This document shows, in pieces, positions 5,359 to 59,768 of a stretch of DNA of 64,000 nt. This DNA comes from a virus. Location of the stretch: IMG/VR virus record IMGVR_UViG_3300045988_174698; one strand, given 5' to 3'. A model generated the notes under the pieces. It was given only the letters and a program-made list of their open reading frames with translations, made no database searches and was not told where the DNA came from. The stretch's first letter is position 1. Every line of letters starts with the position of its first letter. Position numbers and translations under genes: made by a program.

Positions 5359-6564
5359 TTATAAAGAAAATTTGCGAATTTTGGTTAAATAAATCTCTTT
5401 ACGATATTGGTTAACTCCACCATAGTCACCATAACTCATCTGCACTTTACGAAGATGGTATAGCTTACCTCCCTCTAATTTTAATTTATCTGCTATATCC
5501 TTTGGAAAAGTAAAATCAATAACCTTGTCAACTGTTATTTTTTTATAGTTACTATCCTTTGAATTTATAACATATATTAAGAAAGCACTTAATATAAGCA
5601 GGTACCACTTAATTTCAGAGTAATCTGTAGTGGGTCTTAAAAATCTGAATTCTACAGTTTTATGGGCATCACCTGAAATTAAATGCATTATATTCATATT
5701 AAAATATCTACCGTGCACTTCCCACTTACGCTCCTCTGTTGAATCATATGAATTAGGTAAATAAAAACTTTGGTCATCATTATACTTATTACCAGTGAAC
5801 CTTTTGTAGAATGTAGGGAGAGATGCAATACTCGGAAAAGGTTTATTGTAAGCTTTACCATTACTTTTATAGCGTTCTGTATAGTAACTATATCTTGGTA
5901 TGTACATACTAATAGACCATTGAAAATGGCACCAGAACTTACACAGACGATTAATATAACTATTATTAATTGGAAAGTTACCAAAATGAATATGCAAAGA
6001 GCAGTTTTTATCGTAAAACGTGTATCTTTCAAGCAGTTTCAAATGCTGTTTAATAATAGGTAAATCTATATGTGTTAATGGAAAAGTTACATATTCATGC
6101 CCATTAATTGAACCATCATACAGTGGTACTAGATTTGTATCAATACAACTTAACCAAGGTATGTTTCCTGCGGATGTTTCATATTCAAGGCCAAAGGTAA
6201 AGTCTTCAATATATGTAAATTCTTTATCAGGTATTAATTTAATATACTTAGGTTTTAAAGATAGTTTTGAAAAATTGTAACATCTATCTATTGGATAATT
6301 AAACACATATTTAGAATCTGTAATGATATTATTAGATAGTTTTAAATCTATCGTATAGCAACAAATATTATTTACCCAATATAATGGTATTTTGCAGTTC
6401 TCGCGTCTTTCCAAATAGGTAATTTTCCCTTCTATTACTAGAGGAATATTTAGTGGGTCTATTTCAAAATAACCATATTCTATATATGCGTAATCAATAT
6501 AGATCACACCTCTTAGTAAGGTATCTCCAGTTTCCCACCTTTTTTTAGTATTATTGTACAGCAT
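5359..6564 (-). CDS. COOH-NH2 amidoligase (glutamine-synthetase-fold, amidoligase_2-like)
   Basis: 401-aa ORF. Motifs GLEYETS, SLHIHFG and VEFRFL match the GxExE...HxH...EFR pattern of phage amidoligases. All Trp encoded by TGG, no TGA. Confidence 0.55.
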   Translation of the reverse strand: MLYNNTKKRWETGDTLLRGVIYIDYAYIEYGYFEIDPLNIPLVIEGKITYLERRENCKIPLYWVNNICCYTIDLKLSNNIITDSKYVFNYPIDRCYNFSKLSLKPKYIKLIPDKEFTYIEDFTFGLEYETSAGNIPWLSCIDTNLVPLYDGSINGHEYVTFPLTHIDLPIIKQHLKLLERYTFYDKNCSLHIHFGNFPINNSYINRLCKFWCHFQWSISMYIPRYSYYTERYKSNGKAYNKPFPSIASLPTFYKRFTGNKYNDDQSFYLPNSYDSTEERKWEVHGRYFNMNIMHLISGDAHKTVEFRFLRPTTDYSEIKWYLLILSAFLIYVINSKDSNYKKITVDKVIDFTFPKDIADKLKLEGGKLYHLRKVQMSYGDYGGVNQYRKEIYLTKIRKFSL

Positions 6565-7873
6565 CTAAATTAACAAGTCTATTAGTTATAAACTGTAAAA
6601 TCTGTGTTTCTAGTACTTCAAAATCGAATGTTGTATTTTCTGCATTATTCTTGAAAATTTCAAAAGCGCTAGGAGCATAGGTATATGTTGTAGAACTTAC
6701 TCCATCTTTTACATTAACTTTATCAGGAGCATTAAATAGAGTAACATATGATCCTTCCATGTACTTCATATAATTGAAGTCTTTGTCAACAGTAGTTAAG
6801 ACACCATTAATAATTCGAGGATTATATGCAAAGTAATCAATAACTTCGGGACAATAAACAGAAAGAACATCATTTGTAAAAAGGTCATCTATATTTTCAA
6901 GGAAATCATAACTTTCTTTATTGGGTAACAATCGCCCATAGAAGAAGTAGAAAGTATGTCTATATGCGTTAGAGCTGGCATATGCTTCGGGTACTAAATG
7001 CCCAGAAGGATAAGCTAGATACATACCGTGTGCTGGAATTTCATTTAACATATACGTACCTGTAGTTTGACTGTAATATAAGTTATTAGAGGTATATGCT
7101 GGGGAATTATCCTTATAAGAAGCACCATATACTGGTATGCAAAGGGTTCTCCTTAATTTTTCACGATTAATATTTCTAATACAGTAAACCTTGTTATCCT
7201 TAATTCGGCATAACTTATTTACAGGAAATTCATAGATTGTTTTTTTACAGTTGATGGAATATAGAGAAGCATACATCGACGAAAAATAAAGTTTACCCTC
7301 GTTAATCATATAAACTAAAGGTCGCTCAGATTTTGTTTTGTTTTCATTATAACAAGAGCTCCCTTTGAACATGAGTACTTCTGGAGTCAAAGATCTATAA
7401 TCTACCATTATAAGAACAGCACAACCTGTATATTCTTCTAGAACATCATATCCATGTTCATAAATAATTTCTGCCAAAATTTGAGAATCAGACATACCAA
7501 GAGTATTAGGTTCTGGAAGATATTTATTAGATAATTCTCCAATATTAAGAATAGTACCATTATGCATTAGTACAAACTCAATTTTGTTACCACGTCTAAT
7601 AACAACTGGCTGAGCCTGATCTAAATTCACAGGATATCCAGGAGAGGCCTTTCGACAATGTAATAAAGCAATAGAAGCTGACTTTGGATAATTTATACTA
7701 GTAGTAAAGTTCCTAAATAATTTTCTGTCACTGACTCCATATTCTACCTTACCATCAATAAAAATACCACAACTATCTCCCCCTCTTTCATCGTTTAGGG
7801 TTCCAAGTATATTAAAGTGGTTTATGTTAAATTCAGTCTTTTCAGTAGAAATTATTCCAGCTAGTCCGCACAT
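6551..7873 (-). CDS. class II (Ntn) glutamine amidotransferase domain protein with long C-terminal extension
   Basis: 440-aa ORF beginning MCGLAGI (catalytic Cys2 of GAT-II/Ntn hydrolases). Contains no Trp codon at all. Confidence 0.55.
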   Translation of the reverse strand: MCGLAGIISTEKTEFNINHFNILGTLNDERGGDSCGIFIDGKVEYGVSDRKLFRNFTTSINYPKSASIALLHCRKASPGYPVNLDQAQPVVIRRGNKIEFVLMHNGTILNIGELSNKYLPEPNTLGMSDSQILAEIIYEHGYDVLEEYTGCAVLIMVDYRSLTPEVLMFKGSSCYNENKTKSERPLVYMINEGKLYFSSMYASLYSINCKKTIYEFPVNKLCRIKDNKVYCIRNINREKLRRTLCIPVYGASYKDNSPAYTSNNLYYSQTTGTYMLNEIPAHGMYLAYPSGHLVPEAYASSNAYRHTFYFFYGRLLPNKESYDFLENIDDLFTNDVLSVYCPEVIDYFAYNPRIINGVLTTVDKDFNYMKYMEGSYVTLFNAPDKVNVKDGVSSTTYTYAPSAFEIFKNNAENTTFDFEVLETQILQFITNRLVNLDAVQ

Positions 7874-8652
7874 ATTCCATAAAGTTTAATTAGATGTTCT
7901 GCCAGTACTTTATTAGATGTATTAATACACTTTTGAACTAAATCTCCTTCTGGCAAAGGAAATCCTTCATTAAACATATCTACAGCTAACATAGTTTGTT
8001 TATAAATCATTGGAAGGTATTTGTCATTAAGCATAAAGCTACTTAGACATCTTGCTTCTACTCCCCACTCAGGACAACGGAAACTTCCTGCTTGACCATA
8101 TAGAGTTCTTCTAAAAGTATCTCTATCATATAATACAGAAGGAACTCCACAGCATAGATCAAAGAACTTAATAAGCTTAACAGATGTATCAAAATTAGGG
8201 TTATCATATCCTATGTGAATGTGTGAACCTGCCACTCTTCTATTATCAGGATAACCTTGTGGCTTATCGTTTTCACACTCTGTATAAGCATCATAATCAC
8301 TAGAACATCCAATTTCATTTGCTTTAGGATCAAGTAATTGATCTTCAGGCACGGGCATAGATGCACTACAACAAATATCAAGATTGTTATCGAATTGTTT
8401 AACCCAATTACGAATCCAATCTTTCATATATTTAATAGAATCTACAAATTCATTACTAGAAGTACAAGGTGGGATATTAAATTCTCCTAAAATACAGTCA
8501 ATCTCCACACCAAATCCTTTTGGCATGCCTTTAGTATATGGTTTACCTTTTTCTCCTGGAATTATTCCAATTGCAGATACTACTTGGTTTGTTTTTGTAT
8601 TAAAAATAAATAACTCGGGGTCTGCTCCAACTGTAATATTTTTAATTTTCAT
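7861..8652 (-). CDS. hypothetical protein, possible second amidoligase/GCS2-like enzyme
   Basis: 263-aa ORF. N-terminal GADPELF and internal GSHIHIGYD are loosely amidoligase-like. Overlaps neighbours by a few nt, consistent with an operon. Confidence 0.4.
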   Translation of the reverse strand: MKIKNITVGADPELFIFNTKTNQVVSAIGIIPGEKGKPYTKGMPKGFGVEIDCILGEFNIPPCTSSNEFVDSIKYMKDWIRNWVKQFDNNLDICCSASMPVPEDQLLDPKANEIGCSSDYDAYTECENDKPQGYPDNRRVAGSHIHIGYDNPNFDTSVKLIKFFDLCCGVPSVLYDRDTFRRTLYGQAGSFRCPEWGVEARCLSSFMLNDKYLPMIYKQTMLAVDMFNEGFPLPEGDLVQKCINTSNKVLAEHLIKLYGICAD

Positions 8653-9289
8653 CTGCTATTAATTTATCAATTATTTCATTTATTCTTATAACAATTGGTG
8701 ATTCAGGTCTCATATATTCAGGATGTCCTTGGATAGCCAAACACTTTGGAAGATTTGGTCTGTCATACAAAACAATTTCAGGTTCACAAGGAGGAGACAT
8801 AACATTATCTCCCTCATATATACTTGACCGATGACTAGTTGAATAAAACAAACATGTCCAATACTTATATGGTATTATAAATGGATACTGCATTTGATGG
8901 TGTGTACTGGTAATTTCATACATTTTATTCGTACTTATCTCTGTAATAGAGTGAGTTATTCGAATAGCATGATTTTCCACATTCTGAATAAGTATGCCAC
9001 CATTCATAATACATAAATATTGACTGCCTCGGCAGATCCCCACAGCTAACTGATCAGGTCTGATTTTCTCAAATTCTTTCTTTTCTGCGAGATCCCTTTG
9101 TAAATTAGCACAAGTAGTAGGATGAGGTTTACAGTTATACAAAGAAGGGTGTACATCTTCTCCACCTGTAAAAATAACAATATCTGCATCGTTAATATCA
9201 TCTACTAGCTCACGCTTAGTAATAAAATTAGCATAGTGTACTTGATTACCAACGACATATACTTTTTTTGTTTTTAGCATAGTATTCAT
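8642..9289 (-). CDS. class I glutamine amidotransferase-like / gamma-glutamyl hydrolase-like protein (putative)
   Basis: 215-aa ORF. ADIVIFTGGEDVHPSLY resembles GATase1/peptidase C26 nucleophile-elbow context. Weak. Confidence 0.4.
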   Translation of the reverse strand: MNTMLKTKKVYVVGNQVHYANFITKRELVDDINDADIVIFTGGEDVHPSLYNCKPHPTTCANLQRDLAEKKEFEKIRPDQLAVGICRGSQYLCIMNGGILIQNVENHAIRITHSITEISTNKMYEITSTHHQMQYPFIIPYKYWTCLFYSTSHRSSIYEGDNVMSPPCEPEIVLYDRPNLPKCLAIQGHPEYMRPESPIVIRINEIIDKLIADEN

Positions 9290-9944
9290 TCGCTATAAAA
9301 TTAATTCCCTTGACAATTTGAGGTAATTGCTTCGAGTTAAATACTCGAAGCAAATGGCACAAACTATTATGTTCAGCCATAATCCTACAAAAACTTTCAC
9401 TATAGTTAAAGTCCCTTCTAATTAAATTAAACTGGCACTTAGGATTAATGTTATAAAATGTTAGGTTATCTAATCCTGGGCAATGACATCTTCTTCCATC
9501 ATGAAACAATGTAATATAAAGTTGCATAATTTGAGTAATATCCAATTCTGGAAAGTTTGCTCTATTTTGCCATGCAGAGTATAATAATAACCAAAACGGA
9601 TTTTCGTATACATATCTAATATACATAGCACTATAGACAAAGAATCTATTGTCAGGAGCACACCTAATTTGTAATTTGTATGAATGTGTACTCTTTACAA
9701 GTGATATTAATGTAAACCCCAGTAGTCTTGAGATTTCCTTAAAGTACTCAATTAATGTTTTCGTATCAAATGTACAGTAGTTAAGCTGAACTTGTCTACT
9801 TCGAGGCCATATAATAGTAGCATAATAATAACCATTAAATTCACCTTGAGAACATCCCCTACTAAAACAAGCCATATTTTCATAAAAGTAATTACCAGCA
9901 TAGTAATTACATTTATATTCTTTTCCTCTAAAATCTAGTATCAT
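9246..9944 (-). CDS. hypothetical protein
   Basis: 232-aa ORF, Cys/Tyr-rich. Confidence 0.45.
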   Translation of the reverse strand: MILDFRGKEYKCNYYAGNYFYENMACFSRGCSQGEFNGYYYATIIWPRSRQVQLNYCTFDTKTLIEYFKEISRLLGFTLISLVKSTHSYKLQIRCAPDNRFFVYSAMYIRYVYENPFWLLLYSAWQNRANFPELDITQIMQLYITLFHDGRRCHCPGLDNLTFYNINPKCQFNLIRRDFNYSESFCRIMAEHNSLCHLLRVFNSKQLPQIVKGINFIANEYYAKNKKSICRW

Positions 9945-10671
9945 AGTACTTTTTTAAATGATTCCCATAATAAGTTATCCCAAAAGAAGCCAGAGAAGGA
10001 GCTGTATTACTTTCAACAATGATATAACTATTATCACTACACAATATATCAAAGCAGGCAATTGTGAGGTCCATTTGTTTTAATGCCTTAATACAATCAC
10101 TAATTATATTTTCCCAACATACAGGTAATTTGTGTTCCTCTGTTACTAAAACAAATATTGAATTATCAGCATGTTTATGCCATTGTACTTCAGCGTCTTG
10201 TTTCAGCACTTTTTTACAAGCATAAAAACAACCATGATGAACATCAATATGTACTCTATATTCATTTGGGAAGAAGTAATACTTTTCAAACACGAAATCC
10301 CTTATATTAACATTATTACATAGATCGTCTAAAGATTTGGGATTATCAATATAATAAATATTCTTCCCTTTCGATGAATGTTTATGTTTTGCTATAAGAA
10401 TTTTGTGCTGCATAAAAAACTTATAAATGCTTGCTTTGTTAGAAGAACTAATCCATTCACTATGAGATACACCCGCTTTGTCAAAGGCACGCTTCATTAA
10501 TATTTTATTCCCAGAAGTTTTAACTCCCTCTATAGTATTAATTTCCAAATATTTATATTTAGAAATTAAAGGAGTTGTGCTCCCTAAACGTAGTAGTACT
10601 CTTTGATTAAAAGGTATACTACGTAAAGGAGCACAACTTGTATTTGGACTGAAAACTCGAAGTTTTAACAT
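9928..10671 (-). CDS. ATP-grasp-like ligase (putative)
   Basis: 247-aa ORF. C-terminal ...FDILCSDNSYIIVESNTAPSL resembles the ATP-grasp E-x-N Mg-binding loop. Confidence 0.4.
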   Translation of the reverse strand: MLKLRVFSPNTSCAPLRSIPFNQRVLLRLGSTTPLISKYKYLEINTIEGVKTSGNKILMKRAFDKAGVSHSEWISSSNKASIYKFFMQHKILIAKHKHSSKGKNIYYIDNPKSLDDLCNNVNIRDFVFEKYYFFPNEYRVHIDVHHGCFYACKKVLKQDAEVQWHKHADNSIFVLVTEEHKLPVCWENIISDCIKALKQMDLTIACFDILCSDNSYIIVESNTAPSLASFGITYYGNHLKKYYDTRF

Positions 10672-11229: not shown

Positions 11230-12306
11230 TTATTTGAAAAATGATAAATATTCTAATGGACTAACAATTCTATATTTAGTCTTTCTAAACTCTAAAAGGT
11301 CAAAAGAATCTGAATAACTCATCATTGACCTTAAGTAGTCAACGAAATTTTCACACCAATCTTGTAACTTATACAAAACTGGAACTGTGGTTTCAATACC
11401 CTCAGCAGTTTTGAGTTTTTGGTTTCCTATTTCTATCTGTGCTTTTTTAGTAGACATACCATAGTATTTACGTCTGAGTCCTAGATTTGGATCTGTAACA
11501 GGTAGTAACTCTCCACAGGCTTCTTGAGATTGTGCAAAGAGTTTTCCAACCATTACATAATCAGCTCCAAGAGCTAGTGCTTTAATAATCTTATCATAAT
11601 TATCAAATCCTCCGTCCGCAATAATAAATGGAACACTTTTGTATGGATGAGTTATTGAGTTACAACCCAAGTAAAAACCAGAGTCACCCGCTATATTAAC
11701 TACTTTTGTTTCTTCAATACATTTTTCTATAGCCCGCTTTTTATCAACAACTTCCTTAATTAAGGAAGCCATTGCATAGTGTATTCCACCATTAGCAGAA
11801 GTAGTACATACAGAACCTCCCCCTACACCTATCCGTACAAAATCAATTCCTGCTAGTGAATAATCAGCATAAGTATCAGGGTTAGCAATATTGCCCGCCA
11901 TTAATGACAATCGACCTCCAAATATAGACTTTGCTTGTGAGCATAAATCAATTAACTTTAACATGTGGCCATTAGCAATATCAACACACACATAACGAAT
12001 ATCATTGGTGGTATCATATATATTTTCAAAATCTGTAATAAATCTTTCAAACTCAGATAAGCCAAGTGCAACAAACGTACTTGTAGACAACTCCCATCGT
12101 TTATCATAATCTACTCCTCTTGGAATAATTGTATTGATCTTATTTCTAAGAAAAACTTCATAATTATTCTCATTAATAACAGAATTCATAGGAGCAGTAA
12201 ATAACGGCAGCATACCATCAAAGTTATATGGATTACAGTCTGCACGATGTTCTATTCTACTGGTTCTAGCTGGTACTAAACAAATATCATTTAACCCATA
12301 TGTCAT
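11230..12306 (-). CDS. IMP dehydrogenase / GMP reductase family TIM-barrel oxidoreductase (GMP-reductase-like, no CBS insert)
   Basis: 358-aa ORF. GVGGGSVCTTSANGG (catalytic Cys loop) and IADGGF...GADYVMVG motifs of the IMPDH/GuaC family. Confidence 0.6.
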   Translation of the reverse strand: MTYGLNDICLVPARTSRIEHRADCNPYNFDGMLPLFTAPMNSVINENNYEVFLRNKINTIIPRGVDYDKRWELSTSTFVALGLSEFERFITDFENIYDTTNDIRYVCVDIANGHMLKLIDLCSQAKSIFGGRLSLMAGNIANPDTYADYSLAGIDFVRIGVGGGSVCTTSANGGIHYAMASLIKEVVDKKRAIEKCIEETKVVNIAGDSGFYLGCNSITHPYKSVPFIIADGGFDNYDKIIKALALGADYVMVGKLFAQSQEACGELLPVTDPNLGLRRKYYGMSTKKAQIEIGNQKLKTAEGIETTVPVLYKLQDWCENFVDYLRSMMSYSDSFDLLEFRKTKYRIVSPLEYLSFFK

Positions 12307-13315: not shown

Positions 13316-14248
13316 CTATTCTTTTACTTCTATAATTTTATATACAGAATTTTGAGTATGAAAATGATTTTTATCTACGATTTTAGTTACAGGTGAGGTT
13401 GAGAAGCGAAATCCAAGACAAGCTCGAAACCCTACAGTTATAGGTAGACTTAAATATCCTTGAGTAAGGTACCCTTTATTGATTCCATTTGGATGATGAC
13501 CTGGCTTATAATTACAAGTATCAGTATCTTCTAACTTTTCAATCTGAACTTTAGTTTGTGCAGGATAACTACACACCTCATAATATAATTCACGTACACT
13601 CCTCAAAGTTTCCTCATGGTGATCATCTGATTCAGGTATTGATCCTTCACAATCACATTTCTTTAATAGTAGTAATGCTTCGAAGTCAATACACTCTAGA
13701 TTATTAGCTAACCTTAGAATAGCCGACTTGATATCTCTTTGTTTTAAAATATAAAGAGGTTGCATGTGACACCTTACCAAAGAAAGAATAGCTCTTTTGT
13801 ACTGAGGTTTAATATCAGAAATATATGTATCTAAAATATGTTCAGCAATTGGAACTCCTTTAATTGCATGGTCCTTACAGTGGTAAAGTCCATCTTCTCC
13901 CTTTTTTGTAGTAACTGGTTTACCTATATCATGTAATAGAGCAGCAAAGATTAGAATATTTCGATAGTCCATGTCTTGAAAAAGTACTTCATTACTGTTT
14001 TCAATATGCTTCAACATACATTTTGTAACCATACAAGTATGGGTGAAAGCGTCTCCCTCTTTATGCCAAAGTATATTCTGAGGAGTTTCTGACAACGCTT
14101 TAAATTCAGGAATTTTTAAAAGTTCATCCCAAAAGACAATATTAGTTTTTGGATCATAAATCATATTATATAATAAGATTATAAGAGATAATAGTAGTAA
14201 CAAATAAAATAGCTGAAGATTTTGCAAAATGTATAAAAGTTGAATCAT
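13316..14248 (-). CDS. HD-domain phosphohydrolase with N-terminal transmembrane segment
   Basis: 310-aa ORF. AALLHDIGKP and HCKDHAIKG are the H...HD...D metal-binding motifs. Hydrophobic N-terminus. Confidence 0.55.
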   Translation of the reverse strand: MIQLLYILQNLQLFYLLLLLSLIILLYNMIYDPKTNIVFWDELLKIPEFKALSETPQNILWHKEGDAFTHTCMVTKCMLKHIENSNEVLFQDMDYRNILIFAALLHDIGKPVTTKKGEDGLYHCKDHAIKGVPIAEHILDTYISDIKPQYKRAILSLVRCHMQPLYILKQRDIKSAILRLANNLECIDFEALLLLKKCDCEGSIPESDDHHEETLRSVRELYYEVCSYPAQTKVQIEKLEDTDTCNYKPGHHPNGINKGYLTQGYLSLPITVGFRACLGFRFSTSPVTKIVDKNHFHTQNSVYKIIEVKE

Positions 14249-18977: not shown

Positions 18978-19004
18978 ATTATAAAGTTTTTAATAAAATT
19001 TTAG

Positions 19005-19086
19005 AGCCTCCTGTCGGACTCGAACCGACGCGTTCAAATGAAGACGGATTACAAAACCGTTGCAGTCGCCGCTGTGCCAAGGAGGC
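19005..19086 (-). tRNA. class II tRNA, Tyr-like architecture; anticodon GTA (Tyr) or TGT ambiguous
   Basis: Acceptor GCCTCCT/AGGAGGC, D loop CAGCGGCGAC, 14-nt variable arm, T arm GTCGG-TTCGAGT-CCGAC. Anticodon region ACGG-TTTTGTAAT-CCGT has a 9-nt loop. Confidence 0.5.
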
Positions 19087-19202: not shown

Positions 19203-20081
19203 TTATAATGACATAAATTGGTTATAGTTATCCTTGTATCCTATAGAAGTATTCACAAGAAGCTCGCCATGCATGCTTCTACCAGGCATTGGCACCATAA
19301 AGTCATTTCCATATATGTTAGTTAAAACACTTAAATATACTTCTGGAGCAGGAAACATTCCTCACTCAAATTTAAGGTAAACCTTATTGTTATAGTCTCT
19401 AGCGTTTCTAAGACTTTGTATCTTATTTGGAAATGTAAGATTACCAAATGACTCTGTGGAGAGTACATTATATCGTTGTCGTAGCTCTTGATATTTTTCT
19501 CTAAGATATAAAAGTCTAGATGTGTTTTCCTTAGAAGAATCATAACATTGTATTCTTGTTTTTACAGCCAGTGCTTCTAGTTTAATTAAGTGAAGCTGGT
19601 GCATAAACTTTTGTCTCTCAACTAGATCATCTGGAACATTATCAAAAGGACATATATCTATAAAGATCCCTTGGTTAAAGGTAAAATGACCTTCTAAATC
19701 CTTTTTGTGAATACATGTTGTGTCACTTCTTCTTAACTTCGTACAGCAATAAAAGGTACTGTCTGTTCAGTCATTTTGAACAAAATATGGATAATTCAAC
19801 TCTTTAACTGCACACTCTAAAAATCTATCATAGTCTGTTCTAGGCATAGCAATATCAATATCATCGTCCCATGGAATAAATCCACCATGTCTGACAGCAC
19901 CAAGTAATGTTCCTCCATCTAAATAGTGCTTCAAATGATATTTATCACAGATATTTTTAAACTGTCATAGCAAATCTAGCTCAACTCCTCAAAGTTCTTT
20001 TCTTTCTTTAGACACCAAGAATCCATTTTTTACTTCTGCTTCAAAAAAGTTATCTGGTAATTTAATATTTAAGTTTACCAT
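19203..20081 (-). CDS. LicD-family phosphotransferase (phosphocholine / phosphopolyol transferase), four in-frame TGA
   Basis: ATG 20081, TAA 19203, 292 aa. [28 protein letters not shown] is the LicD signature. Start overlaps the upstream cytidylyltransferase gene by 20 nt. Confidence 0.65.
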
Positions 20082-20742
20082 TAAATAAAAATTTAGCCAA
20101 CTCTAAATCATCAGGACTTGTAATTTTAAAATTCATAAGTTCTCCCGAGATATATAAGCATTTATTTCCATTATGCTCATATAAGTCAGGTAAAGTCTGA
20201 TAATTATCTATATTTTTAATCTTTGTAATTATATTATAAAGGCTTCTAAGCATAAAAGTTTCAGGAGTCTGTAAGATAGCAATTGGCTCCGTTCTTACTC
20301 CAGGAACATGTAACGAACTAAGATCTTTTAAAGTGCTAACTGTTGGAATGTATGGAACAACAGCCGAATTATTAGAATCACAAGAAGACAAACATCTTGT
20401 AATTAAATTTGAAGTGAAAAAAGGTCTAACAGAATCATGAAACATAATTTTTTCAATAGAAGGATAGTAAGTCATTATGTATTCAAGACCAGCAATTCTA
20501 GATCTTAAGCATGAGTACCCTCCTTCTATAATTTTGATATAAGAAAATGGAAAAAGCTTTCGAAGAATAGGAATATATTCAGGTAGAGTAACTATAACAA
20601 TTATGTTAAACAGTCTTAACCTAACAAACTTTTCAACAGTCAAATATACTATAGGATGTCCATTAATATCTATAAACTGCTTAGGAATATTCATTCCTAC
20701 CCTAGTTCCTTTTCCAGCAGCATTAATAACTAAGGCATTCAT
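20062..20742 (-). CDS. nucleotidyltransferase of the IspD/TarI family (CDP-alcohol-forming cytidylyltransferase)
   Basis: 226-aa ORF. N-terminal INAAGKGTRVGMNIPKQFIDINGHPIVYLTVEKF matches AAGxGxRxG...PKQ(Y/F)..L.G.P(I/L) of IspD/TarI. Confidence 0.6.
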   Translation of the reverse strand: MNALVINAAGKGTRVGMNIPKQFIDINGHPIVYLTVEKFVRLRLFNIIVIVTLPEYIPILRKLFPFSYIKIIEGGYSCLRSRIAGLEYIMTYYPSIEKIMFHDSVRPFFTSNLITRCLSSCDSNNSAVVPYIPTVSTLKDLSSLHVPGVRTEPIAILQTPETFMLRSLYNIITKIKNIDNYQTLPDLYEHNGNKCLYISGELMNFKITSPDDLELAKFLFNGKLKY

Positions 20743-20946
20743 ACACTTAATCTTATACTCTTTTTCTTTTAATACTAGTTAATACACTAAAATAAAGATT
20801 CATTTCTATTCCTAAAGTAAAGGATAGTACATAGTACTATTACCACAAACCAGATAAAAAGAAATAGTAATATTAGACAGTTAATTAGTACTGTTGCCAT
20901 AGTATTATTTATTATATGTGAGAAATATTTATTTAATTTTAATAGT

Positions 20947-21019
20947 TGCTCGTTAAAGATTCGAACTTTAACTTTCACGTTCAAAGCGTGACGTGCACAA
21001 ACCAAGTACACCAACGAGC
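20947..21019 (-). tRNA. tRNA-Gln (anticodon TTG)
   Basis: Acceptor GCTCGTT/AACGAGC, anticodon arm TCACG-CTTTGAA-CGTGA, T arm TAAAG-TTCGAAT-CTTTA. Track ORF 20787..21038 overlapping it is spurious. Confidence 0.6.
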
Positions 21020-21148
21020 AGAAGCAAATCCGCAGCAAGAATCCACCACAAATATAAAGATAAAAGTCAATATAACCAAATATTTGTACACTTATTTCTA
21101 TAATTTGTACAAATTTTTGAGATTACTATTCAGTATAATAACTAACAC

Positions 21149-21887: not shown

Positions 21888-21907
21888 AAGTTAAAAAGAT
21901 TTTTGTG

Positions 21908-21950
21908 TGGCTGATGAGAATTGAACTCATGTCCATTCAACTATTAATAA
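21908..21950 (-). pseudogene. orphan tRNA 3' fragment (T arm plus acceptor 3' strand)
   Basis: Minus-strand ATGAG-TTCAATT-CTCAT-CAGCCAC-A. No complementary 5' acceptor (GTGGYTG) within 700 nt upstream. Confidence 0.35.
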
Positions 21951-22643
21951 TAATTTTATTTACATGCTAGGTTATTTTATTCTCCTATTCCGAAAAATAA
22001 CAAAACGTATCAGATAGTTTTTATCTTATCTCCTACAACTTATCTGAAATAACTCGGTTCTATAATAGTAGTTAGTAATGATTAACTTACATCATCTGCA
22101 TTAATCTATACAGAAAATCTTTGTCTATTATTTCTCCAGACTTGGATAGCTTAAGCTGCAAAAGCTACTTGAGCACGCATAGGAGTTGCAAGAGGCATAA
22201 CCTTGTTAGCCATCTTACGTACAGTGTTCTTAGCGTTTATTTTTTGGTCCAGTTGTTAAAGAAGTTATACCAGCTCCTGCATGAATTGTTATCAACTATC
22301 TTGAATGTCAAAAACCTGGCAGGCCCAAAGACAGGGCAGTTTATACTTATACCCTAGAAGTGGTCCATAATAGCTAAAGTGTTTAATGCTCTAATTATAT
22401 AGCAGCGACTAGTATACTGTTATACTTTTCTTGTAACTTCAAGAACTATTACTAAAACTTCAATGTGAAGTTCCTAAAAGCCACTTGAGTATTTTTTGGG
22501 TTCACTCAAGAATACCGTGTTTTATTGTCGGGATCAAACAACCAAACTACCACCTTTCTATATACAAAGGCAAACTCATACTATCTGGCGTAACCCGTTA
22601 CTATTATTTATATACCGCTAAGTAACCTAATGCGGTTTACTTT

Positions 22644-23313: not shown

Positions 23314-23691
23314 ATGAATATATTAATAAAAACATGTACGGTTTGTAAAGAATCAAAAGCCTTAGATGAGTTTCCAAAGCATCCACAGCATAAAGATGGA
23401 TACAATAGTGTTTGTAAAAAATGTATGCAAAAAAGCAATAAAAAATGTAGATCAAATAAAAAGATTCATTTTATAAAGAAAATAGGAGGAGAATGTACAA
23501 ATTGTAAAATAAAATTGACTGAAAATAATTGACCAATATTTGATTTTCATCATATAGATCCTTCCCAAAAAGAAGTTTCTTGATCAACATTAAGAAATTG
23601 AAGTAATGATAAAATTGAAAAAGAATTAAACAAATGCACTTTACTATGTGCTAATTGTCATAGACTTTTACACGCAAAGACTAAAGATTAA
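23314..23691 (+). CDS. free-standing HNH endonuclease, TGA-recoded, opposite orientation to neighbours
   Basis: Track ORF 23314..23532 ends at TGA. Read-through (3 TGA) to TAA at 23689..23691 gives FDFHHIDPSQKEVSW...NKCTLLCANCHRLLH (HNH H-N-H with zinc-binding Cys pairs CTVC and CKKC). Confidence 0.6.
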
Positions 23692-34709: not shown

Positions 34710-34734
34710 GTAAAATAAATTTGTCTAATTGACA

Positions 34735-34857
34735 GGATTCGAACCTGCAGATGTTTTGATTAACACCACATATTGTTTCAATACAGCCAAATTAGTTTTC
34801 ATTTGACGAAGGGATATTAGTCCCTAGCGTATACCAATTCCGCCACAATTAAACAAA
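34735..34857 (-). other. aberrant tRNA-like locus (about 123 nt): tRNA ends with about 55 extra nt between anticodon-like arm and T arm
   Basis: 5' TTAATTG-TG-GCGG..., anticodon-like arm AGGGA-CTAATA-TCCCT (6-nt loop), then about 55 nt, then GCAGG-TTCGAAT-CCTGT and acceptor CAATTAG. No clean cloverleaf. Confidence 0.3.
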
Positions 34858-34989
34858 CTTATCTTTAACTTTAAAATGAAGGAGTGGGTGACTGTCACTC
34901 TAACAGTTACTAATACTAGTATAATGGCCTAGCAGCTCAGTGCCACAGTCTTCCGACACATTAGTAATGTATTTTTACTTCATCTTGCA

Positions 34990-35100
34990 GGTGTAACGGG
35001 ATTCGAACCAGACATACGATTCCCTCAAGAGTTCTCTCTTAGCGTATCTCCGAAGTTGCCACCTCGGTGTTTTACCATTAAACTATACACCTAAAACAAG
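34990..35100 (-). other. aberrant tRNA-like locus (about 110 nt) with about 40-nt nested-hairpin insertion in the variable region
   Basis: Acceptor AGGTGTA/TACACCT, D arm GTTT-AATGGTA-AAAC, hairpin CCGAGG-TGGCAA-CTTCGG, extra stem AGATACG...CGTATGTCT enclosing AAGAG-AGAA-CTCTT, weak T stem around TTCGAAT. Confidence 0.3.
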
Positions 35101-50667: not shown

Positions 50668-51606
50668 ATGCCTAAACTTAGAGGGAGTAAATTAAAATAT
50701 GTTAATGGGTATGCAGTAGATAAAGAAAATGATAATATTATATACTCTGATGAAAAGCATATTTATATGGATAAGACCGATAATTCGAAATATGAATCTG
50801 TAACGACAATAATAGGACAGTACTGTCAAAAATTTGATTCAGACTTTTGGTCATCATATAAAGCTTGTGAGGCGTTATTAGACCCCACAGTGTTTTACCC
50901 ATTAAAATCAAAACTTCTTTCTTCTAAAAAATGAAAGGAGTCTTATATTGAAGAATATGGATTAGATCCTGTTGAATTTCTAAATAAGAAATCTGAAATC
51001 CTACAAAGTTATGAAGATAAGAGGAATGCTAGTACGGAACGTGGTACTAAAATTCATGCTATGATGGAAGATCTATTTTATCAAGGGGATAAAAAGGCAA
51101 TAAGCAAATATGCAGGAGGAGGAACTTTTGAGGTAAAGAAGGGATATTATAAACTAGATATTGACAGGGCAATTTATCCTGAGTTTCTTATAAGTTATGA
51201 ATTTGACGAATACTTAAAGATTGCTGGTCAAATAGATTATTTACAGATAAGTGATAATGAGATAGTTTTGTTAGATTGAAAGACTAACGGTAAGATTGAT
51301 AAAGAGTCTTATTTTGATAGAACTACTAAGAAAAGACAGATGATGCTCTCACCATTAGAAAATATTATGGATTGTAATCTATGTCACTATCAGTTACAAC
51401 TTAGTATGTACGCATATCTTCTTCAGAAGATTAATCCTAAATTCAAAATAAAAAAGCTAGCAATTGTTCATTTTGATCACGACGGTAATGAAACTGAATA
51501 TGAAGTAAAATATTTAAAAGATGATATTGCCAGACTTCTTTTATATCATAGGAAGAAGAATAAAATAAAAGCAGAACTTGATAGAGACAAACCAATAGTA
51601 TTTTAA
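50668..51606 (+). CDS. PD-(D/E)xK nuclease (YqaJ / lambda-exonuclease / Cas4-like fold), two in-frame TGA
   Basis: One frame from ATG 50668 through track fragments 51061..51279 and 51340..51606 (312 aa). Motifs TKIHAMMED ... GQIDYLQISDNEIVLLDW(TGA)KTNGKI (D...E.K core with the Trp at the recoded codon). Confidence 0.55.
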
Positions 51607-54591: not shown

Positions 54592-56910
54592 ATGGCGAAA
54601 AAACTAAGTATTGAAGCTGAAATGAGAGCTGCTCAGAGAGATATGAAGAAGAAGTTGAGTGGTGAAGATAAGGAAGAGGTAAAGAAGGTTAAAAAGAAAG
54701 CTAAACCAGTAAAAGAACAATATAAGGAAATAAAAGAATCTCTTAAAGAAAAAGAGGCTCCTAAGGAAATTGCTTTTAAAGATAATTATGAAGAGGAATT
54801 AATTAGGGAATTATTTAAAGGTGATATTACTGTTTCCCAAGCTCTGGGTAAAGAAGATGAGCCTGAACAACCTAAAAGAGAGAAAAGTGGATTGTGGGAT
54901 TATGTTCTCGAAGATGAAATAGAATTCTTTGACCCTGAATGTAGTTATGAATTGACTGGTTATAGACCTATAGATGAAACTCATGGATTAGATTTTGATC
55001 CAGCACCTTTTTGTGAAGCGGGAAGAGTCTATACTGAAACTGGTCACTATACTGAATATCCGTCTGGATCTAAACCATATGCTGATTTCTGACAAGAACA
55101 ATTAGATAGATGCATTAATGGTTATACGATTGGTAAGTATAGAATTACTGGAGATAATTATTTCTTCCTTAATTTTTATAGGATGCCTGTTGTAGACGAT
55201 TCTAAAAAACTGGCGGAAGCTTCTGGAGAAGGATTTCCAAAATTTGTAGCAGAGCAATATAAATTCTTTCATTATTTTGAAATGTGCGAACTACTTAAAA
55301 AAGACTGCGTTGCACTAAAAAGCCGAGGCATAGGCTGAAGTGAGATAGGAGCTTGTTTAGGAGTTCGTCCATTTATAACAGGAAGAAATTTTAATTCAAC
55401 ATATATTACTTCTTCACTAAACTATCTGGAGCCGACATTAAATAAATGTTGAGCCCAGCTTCATTTTTTAAATGGAAACACCAACGGTGGATTTAGAAGA
55501 CCTATGATGAAGATTAACAATGCTCTTCATAAAAGAACTTCTCTTACTGATAATGAAAATCGCGAATGAGGCAGATTAAATAATATAGAAGGAATTGTAG
55601 CAGATAATATTAACAAAGTCCGTGGTATTCGTTCTAATAGACTTTTCTGAGAGGAGGGAGGGTCCTTCAAAAATCTAGAGACTGCTTGAATTAAAGGAGA
55701 GGCATTAGTAACAGTTGCGGGTGCTAGAAAAGGCATTATGAGTGTCTGAGGTACAGGAGGTGATTCAGATGCTTCTGCACTAGAGGGTCTATCTAAAATG
55801 TTTAATAGTCCAAAAGAATACAATGTACTTCCATATAAAAATAATTACTCTGAGGATGGTGAAGTTCAATATACTGGTTATTTTATACCCGCTTTTAATA
55901 TTATGCTTAAAAAAGGTTTCTATGATAATAGAGGAGTTACAGATAGGAAAAAAGCAAGAGAACATTATGAAACTGAAAGAAAAAAGAAGTCTGGGCAAAA
56001 TTTATTAGATTATTGTGCAGAATTTTGTTTCACCCCTAGTGAGGCATTATTAAAACAAGGTGATGGTATTTTTGATCCAGTACTTATAGCAGATCGTTTA
56101 ACTCAACTTCGTATACAAAAAGTAGGGGTAAAACCACAACAAGTTGATTTGTTATGAGATGTTCCAAAAGGGTCAGAAAATAATCCAAGAAATAAAGTTA
56201 AACTTATTCCTAATCCACAAGGAAAAGTATTTATATATGAACCTCCTCTTAGAGACGGAGAAGGGAATCTTTATAAAAATCTCTATGTTGCAGGAATTGA
56301 CTCTATTGATCAAGGTACTGCAGATTCCTCAACAAACAATGATGTGTCTGATTTTTGTATAGTAATTAAGAAAAGAACATTAGGTTCTAGTTCTCCAAAT
56401 TATGTTGCAATTTATAAAGATAGACCTAGAGACATTGCTACGGCTTATGAAAATGCTATGAAATTATGTATCTATTATAATTGCAAAGCGATGTTAGAGC
56501 ATACAAAAATTAGTATTATTATGTATTTTCGTTCTAAAAAGAAAGATAATCTTTTTATGAAGAGGCCAAAATCAACGATGCCTGATATTCGAAAAGGTAA
56601 CTCTGGAATGATTGGATACCCCGCAACTGAAACGTATCTACGTCACGGACTTGAATTAATTAGTAGATTTGTAGATGAATCTTGTTATTCTATGCAGATT
56701 GATGAAATGCTGGAACAATTACTTAAATATTCCTGGGAACATAAACGTAAATTTGATATTGTTGCAGCTATGGTAGCTGCTGAATTAGGGGATGAAGACC
56801 TTTTAGGATTTACTCCAAAGGCTCAAGATGAAGTAAGAAATTCATGAAAGGATTTTGGATGATATTATGATTTAAATGGGCAAAAACGATATGGAATTAT
56901 ACCTTCGTAA
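54592..56910 (+). CDS. terL: terminase large subunit, about 772 aa, about 12 in-frame TGA
   Basis: Track fragments 54592..55092, 55798..56157 and 56344..56847 are one frame with no TAA/TAG from 54592 to TAA 56908..56910. Contains the deviant Walker-A-like KSRGIGW(TGA)SEIGA (TerL K/R-S-R-x-x-G pattern) and a C-terminal nuclease-like YVAGIDSIDQGTADS. Size and position fit TerL. Confidence 0.65.
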
Positions 56911-57201: not shown

Positions 57202-59768
57202 ATGAATGTTGATAGAGAAATAAAACAAATTGACAAAGCTATAAGTGAGTTAATATACCCTAAGATAGCACTTCAAAAAGCTTATAATTACTATCACAGT
57301 AGACGAGATGCAGATCAGTTTAGGCATATTGAAGAAAATTATGGTATTGGTGTACCCACTGGAATTACATTTAATCCTCTTGTTCGCCCTCATATAGATA
57401 GGTTAATTGGAGAATATTTAGGATTAAATCAAGATTTAAAAATAACATGTAAAGATGAGGAAACAGTTTCTAATATTATGAGAGAAAAACAATTATTAAT
57501 TAGTAAAGAACTGTTTAATTATCTAAAAAAATATTTAGAAAATAATATAATATCTTCTATTATTAACAATGAAGAAGTTTCAACGGATCCATTTATTGAG
57601 AAACAATTAAATAAAATTAGTAATAGCATTAATGATTCTTTTGTATCTCAATATGAAATTGCAGCTCAGAATATTCTTGACTATTTAAAGCAGTCAAAAA
57701 ATATAGATTTAACAAATAAAATGCATAGTCTGCTTACAGATTTATGTATTACTGGTACATGTTATTATAGAGTAAGACCTTCTAACAGTGGAGATAATAT
57801 ACAATTTGAGGTATTGAACCCTATTAATACATTTGTAGAAAAAAATCCAAATTCAGACTATTTAGCAGATTCATACCGTGTAGTGGTTAGAAGGTATATG
57901 TCTGTAGAAGATGTTTTACTAGAATATCGTAAAGATCTAAAGGAGGAACACATAAAACTTCTAAAGGAAGAGAATAACAGCACAATTGAGTCAGACGGTC
58001 CTTCTTATTATATTAGAGCCACATCTCCTGAAATAGCTGGAGTTTGAAACAGTACTCATACTGGAATTTTAGGGGGACTAGAAACACATCCTATATGACC
58101 AGGTGAAACTAGCAGAACTAATAGGTACACTTACCCAAAAATGTGAACTGTTTATGATGTAGAATGAATTGAAGTTGATTATAAAACAGGAAAACAGACT
58201 AGACATGAAGGTACACGTATTGGAGAAGAAATTTATATAACTAGGGGGGAATCTGAAAATATTATTAGAACAAAAGATAATCCGAATAAATGTAGATTAA
58301 GTGTTAATGGTTTATTTTTCCTAGATAAGAATGGAGATCCAAACTCCTTGATTATCAAGACAATGGATCAACAGGATTAAGATTATATGAGTCCTGTCTA
58401 AACCTCGTGAATTGCTGGAAACTCTTAAATTGAATGAAAGTAAATCTAAGACAATCAGCAGCCAAGCTCGTAAGAGAAGGTTCAACGACTATCCTGAAAG
58501 GGAGTACACTCAAGTGAGTGGAAGTGCGGGGGCAAATTTGATTTAAACTAATTATAAGTAGTTATGAAATATAACGAAATAGAATTTAAAAATCTAGTAG
58601 CTACAGAATGTTTTTCAACAGATTTATTTGAATTAGTTTTAGAACAAATTTGTATGATATAGTCTAATCTATATGGTGACATATAGCAGTCGCAAGACGG
58701 GTGTAAATTAACGACTTACACTGAATAAAAATGAAATATGACTTATTAGTATTTTATCGAGATAACTTAATTTCTAGTTCAGGTACTGTTGGAGATTGAG
58801 TTGACTTAGCTTATGTACCACAGGTTTTAGGAGTAGATTTACCAGAACGATTACAAAAATGATTAGCTTATAAAAAGCAAGGTATGGGCTTAATTGATAG
58901 TAGTCAAGAAGGAGCTCAAACAATGAATACGATATTTAATGGTTATGATGATACTATTAAAGCACAAAGTATCCAGGCAATTAATTTAGCTATACAATCA
59001 ATTCAACAACAGGTTTCTATGGTCACTGGTGTTTTACCTGAGGCTCTAGCTCAGTATGAACAACGTGATGCTGTTTCAAATGTTAAGTTGGGAGTACAAA
59101 CTACAATGCTTTTAACTAAGCAAATTTTCAATGCTATGGATACTGTATATCAAGAAGCAAATTATGATATGCTTAACCTTGCGAAACTAGTTTGACCAAA
59201 AGGAATAACAGGCACAATTGTTTTAGGTAATTATTCCAAAATATTTACAGCCCTTCCCCAATATTATACCTTAACTGATTTTGATATTCATATTGAAGAT
59301 AGTACTAAATCTTATCAGAACGTACAATCATTAATTGCAATCAGTGGAGAGCTTGTTAAGAGCGGAGTAGCAGATTTAGGAGATATTACAAATATTATAA
59401 CTGCATCTTCTATTACTGAATTAAAGCGATATATTGATCGCTCTATAGCTCGTAAAAAAGAGGAAAATGATACTATTGAACAGTTACAACAACAAATTCA
59501 ACAGTATGAACAAAATTCTAAAGAACTTCAAAAAGTTAATCAACAATTACAAGAACAAATTCAACAGCTACAGAATCAATTACAAGCTAATAATCAAACT
59601 AAACTTGAAATTGAAGCAGAAAAGGTTGCAATTGAGAAAGAAAGGATGAGGAATGATAAGGAATATAATGATAAGAGTCTAGAAGTTAAAAATAAACAAA
59701 TTGATGCACAGGTTGCTGAGATATATGATGATAATCCGTATAATAATAAAATAAAAAGTGTAATATAA
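57202..59768 (+). CDS. portal-like protein split by a group I intron (exon 1 57202..about 58380; exon 2 about 58724..59768)
   Basis: Exon 1 frame (392 codons, 4 TGA) runs into a stop at 58378. A different frame opens at 58707 and runs (2 TGA) to TAA 59766..59768 with a Gln-rich coiled-coil tail. A group I core lies between them. Position after TerL and combined size (about 740 aa) fit a portal. Exact splice junctions not determined. Confidence 0.4.
58381..58723 (+). mobile_element. group I intron (ORF-less) in the portal-like gene; boundaries approximate
   Basis: R element GGTTCAACGACTATCC (58479..58494) and S element GATATAGTCTAA (58656..58667) in the correct order and spacing; P9-like hairpin GTGTAA-ATTAACGAC-TTACAC (58701..58721). 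No ORF inside. Confidence 0.5.

Follow-up and report, generated by a model that had tools for sequence, protein, structure and literature searches.

The 64,000-nucleotide stretch of viral DNA analysed here (IMG/VR record IMGVR_UViG_3300045988_174698; below, the window) carries on its minus strand, at positions 19203–20742, two overlapping genes for an IspD/TarI-family cytidylyltransferase and a LicD/fukutin-family phosphotransferase. The IspD-like gene (20062–20742) encodes 226 amino acids and the LicD gene (19203–20081) spans 292 codons; both start with ATG and end with TAA. They share 20 nt (20062–20081), the ATG of LicD preceding the TAA of the IspD-like gene. The IspD-like protein matched Pfam PF01128 with 96 bits (cut-off 27, E = 3.6e-27), its residues 4–220 corresponding to positions 3–219 of the 221-position profile. 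LicD, with TGA read as tryptophan, matched the whole of PF04991 (1–227 of 227) with 136.3 bits (cut-off 22.6, E = 2.3e-39). A sequence-only reading of this DNA had placed such a pair here with a 20-nt overlap; position, families and overlap were all borne out. With translation table 4 both matches lie far above their cut-offs and the assignment stands.

The same 20-nt overlap was found in L003–L010, and an 8-nt overlap or a 4-nt gap separated the two genes in lineages using the standard code. The overlap suggests that the IspD-like gene and LicD are co-transcribed, possibly with coupled translation. Scans for promoters and terminators around the pair gave chance-level results only. The ratio of nonsynonymous to synonymous substitution rates (dN/dS) was 0.06–0.085 over the whole LicD frame in comparisons with L004, L005 and L009 and 0.18–0.22 for the IspD-like gene in comparisons with L004/L005; purifying selection evidently acts on both genes. 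A protein from a metagenome protein collection (P0001), representing 204 database sequences, was 99.7% identical to the tryptophan-translated LicD. No PHROGs family matched LicD, and the IspD-like gene obtained just a weak match of unknown function. A megablast search with 10 kb around the pair against GenBank phages gave no match. LicD was found by tblastn in just 12 of 50,697 records, with no complete cultured phage among those 12. PADLOC returned no defence-system match for the pair or its neighbours.

LicD carries the motif GxLLGAxRHxGxIPWDDDxD followed by a downstream acidic residue. Residues G57, L60, G61, R64, P70, W71, D72, D74, D76 and D142, invariant in an alignment of 76 LicD sequences (A3), are all kept in the window protein. 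The motif aligns with residues 296–330 of FKRP. The AlphaFold2 model of LicD had a predicted local distance difference test score (pLDDT) of 94.1, and the protein is predicted to be soluble. The top 13 PDB matches of the model were all FKRP chains (E 4e-6 to 4e-5, probability 1.0), including the CDP-ribitol (cytidine diphosphate ribitol) complex 6KAM (E about 4e-6); the nucleotidyltransferase LnuA came next.

The IspD-like protein holds the glycine-rich loop INAAGKGTR and the lysine of IPKQF. Residues invariant or nearly invariant in two alignments (A4 and A5) and present in the window protein are G10, G12, R14, P20, K21, Q22, H102, D103, R106, Q158, T159, P160, N204, K206 and T208. The motif set is complete (AAGxGxR, the PKQ lysine, HDxxRP, QTP and the C-terminal NxK(I/V)T lysine). 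The AlphaFold2 model (pLDDT 92.8; protein predicted to be soluble) was matched by Foldseek equally well, with a template-modelling score of 0.86, to Staphylococcus aureus TarI (6XHS/6XHT) and Mycobacterium smegmatis IspD (2XWL). Profile match, motifs and fold uphold the proposed IspD/TarI-type nucleotidyltransferase at the level of the family. A profile built from the phage IspD-like proteins separated phage-type proteins, which scored 243 bits or more, from all others, which did not exceed 189 bits. After the phage-type cluster, its top cellular matches included genuine IspD–IspF fusions at 33–35% identity, which we take to mark relatedness only. No IspE or IspF was found near the IspD-like gene.

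The LicD frame contains exactly four TGA codons and no other internal stop. Translation with table 11 split it into five pieces, each of at most 80 amino acids; the dependence on four TGA codons proposed earlier was thereby confirmed. At codon 31 (19989–19991, minus strand) the aligned column is tryptophan in 76 of 76 sequences of alignment A3, cellular ones included, and the codon is TGA in 8/8 recoded relatives. Codon 39 (19965–19967, minus strand) is TGG in L009 and L010. Codon 105 (19767–19769, minus strand) is again TGA in 8/8 recoded relatives and is aligned with tryptophan in the L009 protein. Codon 240 (19362–19364, minus strand) is TGA in L003 and L005–L007, and L008–L010 have TGG at codon 241 instead. 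The tryptophan of the catalytic IPWDDD motif is encoded by TGG in the window and by TGA in L004–L008, so that TGA and TGG alternate at the same LicD codons among the eight related phage contigs. With TGA as a sense codon, window open reading frames (ORFs) of at least 100 amino acids total 55 kb, against 37 kb otherwise. TGA is evidently tryptophan in LicD because codon 31 falls on an invariant tryptophan, TGA and TGG interchange in relatives, the LicD dN/dS is low and ORF length is gained.

Tryptophan codons in the window are bimodal, with 47 TGG and 3 TGA in the 5–18 kb block and 14 TGG and 65 TGA in the 44–64 kb block. The latter is a late block of terminase, portal and lysin-like genes. LicD has 1 TGG and 4 TGA, against 32 TGG and 1 TGA in 16 minus-strand neighbours at 15.8–29.2 kb (Fisher p = 3.3e-4), and its usage was indistinguishable from that of the late block (p = 1). 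In L009/L010, too, TGG-only and TGA-using genes are interleaved, with LicD among the TGA users, and the LicD of every recoded relative has three or four TGA codons. The IspD-like gene has no TGA; it has no tryptophan codon in the window, L003, L009 and L010 and a single TGG in L004–L008, and is uninformative on timing in this respect. The bimodal usage is consistent with a phage that recodes TGA during part of its programme in a host with the standard code. Since genes needed before recoding cannot tolerate TGA, yet LicD does, LicD is probably translated in the recoded phase. Published examples of such TGA recoding come from gut phages, crAss-like ones among them (PMC7886860, PMC12386605).

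L009 (13703–13783) and L010 (14370–14450) each carry a tRNA with the anticodon CUA, which is an amber suppressor and was called tRNA-Pyl by ARAGORN. The LicD of L009/L010 still holds three in-frame TGA codons, so that a TAG suppressor coexists with TGA recoding in these contigs. The same coexistence has been noted for phage Lera (PMC12386605).

The window probably belongs to a TGA-recoded, Zeta-type crAss-like phage. Its terminase large subunit (TerL; 772 amino acids, 54592–56910) matched phrog_6681 and is about 30% identical to crAss-like TerLs and 44% identical to that of MT835470, an uncultured 117-kb gut phage. The portal matched phrog_6547, and a PD-(D/E)XK nuclease (PDDEXK_1, 50668–51606) lies within the structural block. 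The sequence-only reading was right about the phage context. The window has at least 12 tRNAs, one tmRNA and a G+C content of about 30%. Relatives, recognized through LicD or a neighbouring SPFH/Band_7 gene, were IMG/VR contigs of 100–176 kb. The literature on Zeta, Epsilon and crAss-like diversity makes no mention of LicD or IspD.

The pair lies between tRNA-Gln(UUG) at its upstream edge (20945–21020, minus strand) and tRNA-Thr(UGU) at its downstream edge (19004–19086, minus strand), both called by ARAGORN and Rfam. Accessory status was judged on 34 loci anchored on the Band_7 gene. The pair was present in six of them, all from the window's own clade. L089 and L098 (88–89% Band_7 identity) have the same Band_7-side neighbours as the window and a run of tRNAs in place of the pair, in L098 in the order Gln, Val, Met, Asp, His, Gly, Trp, Thr. 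Judged by this gene order, the pair is an accessory insert in the tRNA array. In the more distant clade of L009/L010 (LicD 73% and IspD 51% identical to those of the window) the pair lies elsewhere, still between tRNAs; in L009 a tRNA-Ile is found 15 nt upstream and a tRNA-Gln 33 nt downstream. As the pair sits between tRNAs in both clades, the array acts as a place where accessory genes insert. Co-transcription of the pair with the tRNAs is plausible.

An IspD-like gene immediately adjoined LicD in 33/33 phage loci with a full-length LicD relative. The pair was found in at least five gut-phage lineages and in three gene orders: the IspD-like gene followed by LicD with an overlap, LicD followed by the IspD-like gene (L083) and a convergent arrangement (L199–L201). 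The window clade and L009/L010 are TGA-recoded. The standard code is used by L020–L033 with L001 and GenBank MT121964, where the pair lies between a thymidylate-synthase-like gene and PolA, near helicase, dUTPase and gp32 genes, and by a second group (L011–L019, MT836104) with other neighbours. The remaining lineage (L083, L199–L201) has ClpB-like and sigma-factor genes and carries the pair as LicD–IspD or convergently, beside a 600-residue Ig-like protein or fibre-repeat proteins. The L020–L033/MT121964 group fits the published 'Flandersviridae' insertion (below, Flanders-type), and the PolA-adjacent layout was seen just in L020–L033 and L001.

A neighbour-joining (NJ) tree was calculated from phage LicDs of the five lineages and 75 cellular LicDs from species-representative genomes. 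The phage proteins were monophyletic in 85/100 replicates, and a subgroup of the window, L009, Flanders-type and L002-type LicDs was recovered in 93/100. The phage IspD-like proteins formed one cluster with a bootstrap value of just 22/100. The module thus appears to be a lineage specific to phages that unrelated gut phages have exchanged. The claim of a functional pair is supported by the 33/33 adjacency, the three gene orders, purifying selection and the occurrence of the same families in cellular capsule-type loci.

Other arrangements of the two families were also observed. L202–L205, a further phage lineage encoding a GH108 lysin and a papain-like peptidase, have a phage-type IspD-like gene without any LicD, and a short-chain dehydrogenase/reductase (SDR) epimerase and a sugar-1-phosphate nucleotidyltransferase lie about 4–5 kb upstream of it. 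A 212-residue neighbour of the phage-type IspD in L204 was considered as a hidden LicD and rejected, being a papain-like peptidase. The Big_1 Ig-like protein of L083 and L201 was rejected as a conserved third partner, as no homologue was found in the window or its relatives. In the Flanders-type contig L031 the LicD match (9121–9967) is in two segments, leaving an ORF of 212 residues; the break stems from a frameshift, from decay of the copy or from faulty assembly. Seven IMG/VR contigs of up to 465 kb (L056, L059, L071, L074, L075, L078 and L079), several of them labelled as GVMAG giant-virus metagenome-assembled genomes, contain a match to the N-terminal part of LicD and, about 3.5 kb away on the other strand, an IspD-like match. 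Giant viruses, too, may have this combination of enzymes.

Among 80 cellular LicD loci, 18 had an IspD-like gene within 8 kb. An SDR reductase match was found in 10 of these 18, directly beside the IspD-like gene in eight. The Prevotellaceae capsule-type locus L080 combines LicD genes with a flippase, glycosyltransferases, an IspD-like gene and an SDR reductase. The Muribaculaceae locus L081 has LicD with NTP_transferase, HAD and APH-type kinase genes and no IspD, the signature of the phosphocholine route. LicDs about 38% identical to that of the window occur in both locus types, and LicD similarity therefore does not predict the donor. Because cellular loci differ in the cytidylyltransferase next to LicD, its type is the best available indicator of the donor. 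An IspD-family partner, as in the phages, points to a CDP-polyol-like donor rather than CDP-choline. No APH/choline-kinase, transporter or LicC-type match was found among the window ORFs scanned. Choline, which the sequence-only reading had allowed as a donor, is unlikely, no LicA/LicC-type partner having been seen.

With moderate confidence, we interpret the pair as a self-contained phage-borne module for CDP-alcohol phosphotransfer that a TGA-recoded, Zeta-type crAss-like phage carries within its tRNA array as an accessory, 'moron'-like insert. A single coupled CDP-alcohol pathway is the best-supported reading and improves on the published two-function view. The first enzyme, a member of the IspD/TarI family by profile, motifs and fold, would condense CTP and an alcohol phosphate, which we infer to be supplied by the host, to CDP-alcohol and pyrophosphate. 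The alcohol would most likely be a polyol or pentose-type phosphate such as ribitol 5-phosphate, with glycerol 3-phosphate and methylerythritol phosphate (MEP) as alternatives. The soluble LicD, likewise assigned to its family, would then move the alcohol-phosphate from the CDP donor to a glycan hydroxyl reachable in the cytoplasm. Since both proteins are predicted to be soluble, the acceptor must be reachable from there, which leaves lipid-linked glycan precursors or phage proteins before assembly. The most likely acceptor would be a lipid-linked precursor of a host surface polysaccharide (capsule, lipopolysaccharide or another glycoconjugate). The surface of the infected or carrier-state cell could in this way be re-decorated, changing the adsorption of the same or competing phages. 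The transfer step is probably confined to the recoded phase, because LicD needs TGA to be tryptophan and has the tryptophan codon usage of late genes.

Several results weigh against this interpretation. Neither the 12 ARAGORN nor the 14 Rfam tRNAs of the window, which leaves out about 100 kb of the genome, include one with a UCA anticodon, and no TGA suppressor was found in about 110 phage slices including the relatives, where the only suppressor was tRNA(CUA) in L009 and L010. Several opal-recoded Zeta phages are likewise without a listed UCA tRNA (PMC12386605, Table 1). The hosts predicted by iPHoP for Zeta phages are mostly Bacteroidales, with Firmicutes too for the opal-recoded group (PMC12386605, Table 1, rows 3–7). 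The cellular LicD homologues (33–40% identity) come equally from Bacteroidales and Firmicutes and do not settle the host. For Flanders-type phages, CRISPR spacers have pointed to the hosts (Bacteroides or Parabacteroides). What is proposed above for donor alcohol, acceptor and biological role is inference. Late expression would leave a lytic phage little time for surface remodelling, and in L083/L199–L201 the neighbouring Ig-like and fibre-type genes fit a virion target equally well.

The label 'TarI' used in the sequence-only reading also fared poorly. The IspD-like protein scored 98.2 bits against the NCBIfam model for ribitol-5-phosphate cytidylyltransferase (NF001183, cut-off 166) and 122.4 bits against the equivalog for genuine IspD (TIGR00453, cut-off 181.3), and it stayed under every NCBIfam equivalog or subfamily cut-off tried. 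Custom profiles gave 127 bits for TarI/SDR-linked and 148 bits for IspDF enzymes, without separation, where recognized TarI-like members score 270–360 bits on the former. TarI and true IspD were not told apart by NCBIfam, phmmer against the PDB, the two custom hidden Markov models, the NJ tree or Foldseek. The partner sugar-phosphate reductase that had been anticipated was missing from the window, and none of the phage lineages examined had one next to the pair. In Pfam scans no alcohol-dehydrogenase- or SDR-type reductase was present among the neighbours or any window ORF of at least 200 residues, and none adjoined the pair in L021 and L013 (neighbours scanned) or in L083 and L199–L201 (precomputed Pfam on L083 and L199–L205). 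The sole oxidoreductase-like gene of the window, an IMPDH/GMP-reductase homologue, is 7 kb from the pair. With no reductase beside the phage pair, either the host supplies ribitol 5-phosphate or the enzyme uses a metabolite present in every host.

The latter case would make the donor not a classical polyol but a derivative of a central metabolite, such as MEP (giving CDP-methylerythritol), a pentose or pentulose 5-phosphate or glycerol 3-phosphate, with LicD installing the corresponding group; transfer of methylerythritol phosphate would be an undescribed glycan decoration. We regard this as possible but unlikely. The reductase missing from five phage lineages, against an SDR match in 10/18 cellular pairs, speaks for it, as do the IspDF fusions among the best cellular matches of the phage profile, the slightly higher IspDF score of the window protein and the acceptance of several pentose phosphates by human ISPD (PMC5701763). 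The Flanders-type and L002-type partners score the opposite way (99–96 bits for IspDF against 105–124 bits for TarI/SDR-linked). In phmmer searches against the PDB the top solved matches were TarI enzymes (4jis, 81 bits; Escherichia coli IspD, 37 bits), by a small margin over Thermotoga IspD, and reductase-less IspD–LicD pairs also occur in cells (L148, L182). We know of no LicD enzyme that uses CDP-methylerythritol. An acceptor of phage origin, with the chemistry unchanged, is about equally unlikely. Here the phospho-alcohol would be added late to virion proteins or virion-bound glycans (fibres, Ig-like decoration proteins), with an effect on stability, adhesion or immune recognition. This would account for the TGA usage of LicD, which is of the late type seen in structural genes, and for two enzymes predicted to be soluble in the cytoplasm, where virions assemble. 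It also suits L083/L199–L201, where LicD directly follows the 600-residue Big_1 protein or lies beside Phage_fiber_rpt and DUF285 proteins. It suits the Flanders-type pair poorly, which is in a replication module (PMC8008677). The Big_1 protein lacks a homologue in the window and relatives, and close relatives with the same Band_7-side neighbours are evidently viable without the pair. We know of no LicD-family enzyme that modifies a viral protein. A combination of a central metabolite (MEP or a pentose or pentulose phosphate) as donor, an undescribed phospho-alcohol (e.g. phospho-methylerythritol), a TGA timer and late application, possibly to virion components, is slightly more doubtful than either of these alternatives. 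Such a timer, if true, would allow the TGA-free cytidylyltransferase gene to be translated at any time and the transferase to be made only after the switch to TGA as tryptophan.

Two further explanations have little to recommend them. The published reading of the pair in 'Flandersviridae' assigns it two independent functions, IspD feeding host isoprenoid (MEP) synthesis and LicD adding phosphocholine to teichoic acid or lipopolysaccharide (Benler et al., 2021, Microbiome 9:78, PMC8008677), and homologues are automatically named 'MEP cytidylyltransferase' and 'LPS cholinephosphotransferase'. Independence is hard to reconcile with adjacency across unrelated phage families in three gene orders, with overlap. 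The choline half lacks its kinase, transporter and LicC-type partner among the window ORFs scanned, and in the phosphocholine-type locus L081 LicD is paired with NTP_transferase, APH kinase and HAD genes, not with IspD. The isoprenoid half is opposed by the score under the IspD equivalog cut-off and by the lack of a nearby IspE or IspF. The teichoic-acid framing, shared by the sequence-only reading, is doubtful: crAss-like phages and 'Flandersviridae' are linked mostly to Gram-negative Bacteroidales, which to our knowledge have no teichoic acid. We consider two independent functions improbable. That LicD is a decaying pseudogene with four real stops, or bacterial capsule DNA mis-joined to phage sequence, can be set aside almost entirely. 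The five pieces under the standard code and the lack of a visible TGA suppressor tRNA in the window would be expected of it, but dN/dS is low over the whole frame, TGA falls on an invariant tryptophan and swaps with TGG in relatives, including the tryptophan of IPWDDD, and TGA as sense lifts the ORF total. Eight independent IMG/VR contigs of 100–170 kb show this gene order with the same flanks, and TerL, portal and the structural-block nuclease mark a crAss-like phage.

The coupled CDP-alcohol pathway that we favour can be compared with known systems. The 'Flandersviridae' insertion resembles that of the window in having ispD and licD adjacent in that order, in being restricted to some members, in coming from human-gut phages and in its LicD, which groups with that of the window (93/100, as above). 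The two differ in that 'Flandersviridae' are myoviruses of about 85 kb and the window is from a crAss-like, Zeta-type podovirus lineage of about 170 kb; the pair is in the replication module in the former and in the tRNA array in the latter. LicD is 45% and IspD 35% identical between them, and LicD is TGA-recoded only in the window. In mammals ISPD (CRPPA) makes CDP-ribitol, which fukutin and FKRP use to add ribitol-phosphate to a glycan (PMC5701763). The likeness lies in an IspD-family enzyme making a CDP-alcohol and a fukutin/FKRP-type transferase decorating a glycan. Among solved structures the phage LicD model matches FKRP alone, the common motif being GG(S/T)LLGAxRHGxxIPWDxDxD. The mammalian pathway differs in being eukaryotic and Golgi-localized, in the extra stem domain of FKRP, in its acceptor (O-mannosyl alpha-dystroglycan) and in sequence (12–15% identity).

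Bacterial CDP-ribitol modules (TarI/TarJ of Gram-positive wall teichoic acid, Bcs1-type and the IspD-like–SDR–LicD trios of capsule/EPS loci) place both families side by side in surface-polysaccharide loci, as in Prevotellaceae L080 and Lactobacillus delbrueckii L120, L127, L130, L132 and L166. They usually have a reductase beside the cytidylyltransferase, which the phage module lacks, and their enzymes score well above that of the phage on the TarI/SDR-linked profile. Cellular LicDs are at most 40% identical to that of the window and fall outside the phage clade, and the phage module brings along no flippase, glycosyltransferase or polymerase. The lic operon also uses a LicD-family transferase and a CDP-activated donor to decorate teichoic acid or lipopolysaccharide. 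It differs in its donor enzyme LicC, from another nucleotidyltransferase family, and in its need for the kinase LicA and the transporter LicB; none of these was seen among the window ORFs scanned. The Gtr/Oac enzymes of O-antigen conversion and the prophage-encoded TarP of S. aureus are, by analogy, accessory phage functions altering host surface glycans as may be the case here. They affect phage adsorption and superinfection. Gtr, Oac and TarP are glycosyltransferases or acetyltransferases of temperate phages, in contrast to a phospho-alcohol pair that includes a donor synthase and is carried by a crAss-like phage that apparently does not integrate.

Phages could alter the chemistry of receptors with a small, mobile, phage-specific module that makes its own activated donor and attaches a phospho-alcohol to a glycan. 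The pair itself is already known in phages from the 'Flandersviridae' (PMC8008677). New here is that it occurs in a recoded crAss-like phage, lies within a tRNA array and is shared by at least five unrelated gut-phage lineages whose LicDs form a single phage clade. The consistent lack of a reductase in the phage versions and the late-type TGA usage of the transferase are also new, as is the reading as one pathway instead of isoprenoid and choline functions.

Some further features of the window were recorded. A tmRNA (21905–22326, minus strand), 1.2 kb upstream of the pair, matched Rfam RF00023 with 52.3 bits (gathering score 47). ARAGORN missed it but called tmRNAs at the same position in L089, L098 and L097, with tags ending in LMAIAA or LMAA. 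Two over-long tRNA-like matches (34724–34852 and 34988–35092, minus strand; 129 and 105 nt, 33–35 bits) are lengthened at the position of the variable arm by inserts of about 55 and 32 nt and have no ARAGORN call and no UCA anticodon. They might be tRNAs with an intron or a ribozyme; theta ribozymes adjoining phage tRNAs have been described (PMC10879173).

A TGA-free block at 5359–10671 (minus strand) is of peptide-ligase type. It contains an amidoligase (phrog_2443), a 440-residue class-II glutamine-amidotransferase-like protein, a COOH-NH2 ligase (phrog_3815, 187 bits), a Peptidase_C26 gamma-glutamyl hydrolase-like protein and a weak RimK ATP-grasp match, and it looks like a small-molecule or peptide-tagging system. 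The IMPDH/GMP-reductase-family protein (11230–12306, minus strand; 122 bits) and an HD-domain protein (13316–14248, minus strand) were also noted. An IMPDH-like gene is also found on L083, another phage contig with LicD and IspD, about 8 kb from the pair. The portal is encoded by two ORFs (57202–58380 and 58731–59768, plus strand) that match parts 54–306 and 461–768 of phrog_6547 and are separated by a gap of about 350 nt, which suggests an intron, an intein or another interruption. A cysteine-rich ORF of 125 residues (23314–23691) lies on the plus strand, opposite all its neighbours, and has three TGA and no TGG codons. It is missing in L004 and present in L003 and L089, and may be a mobile endonuclease-type insert.

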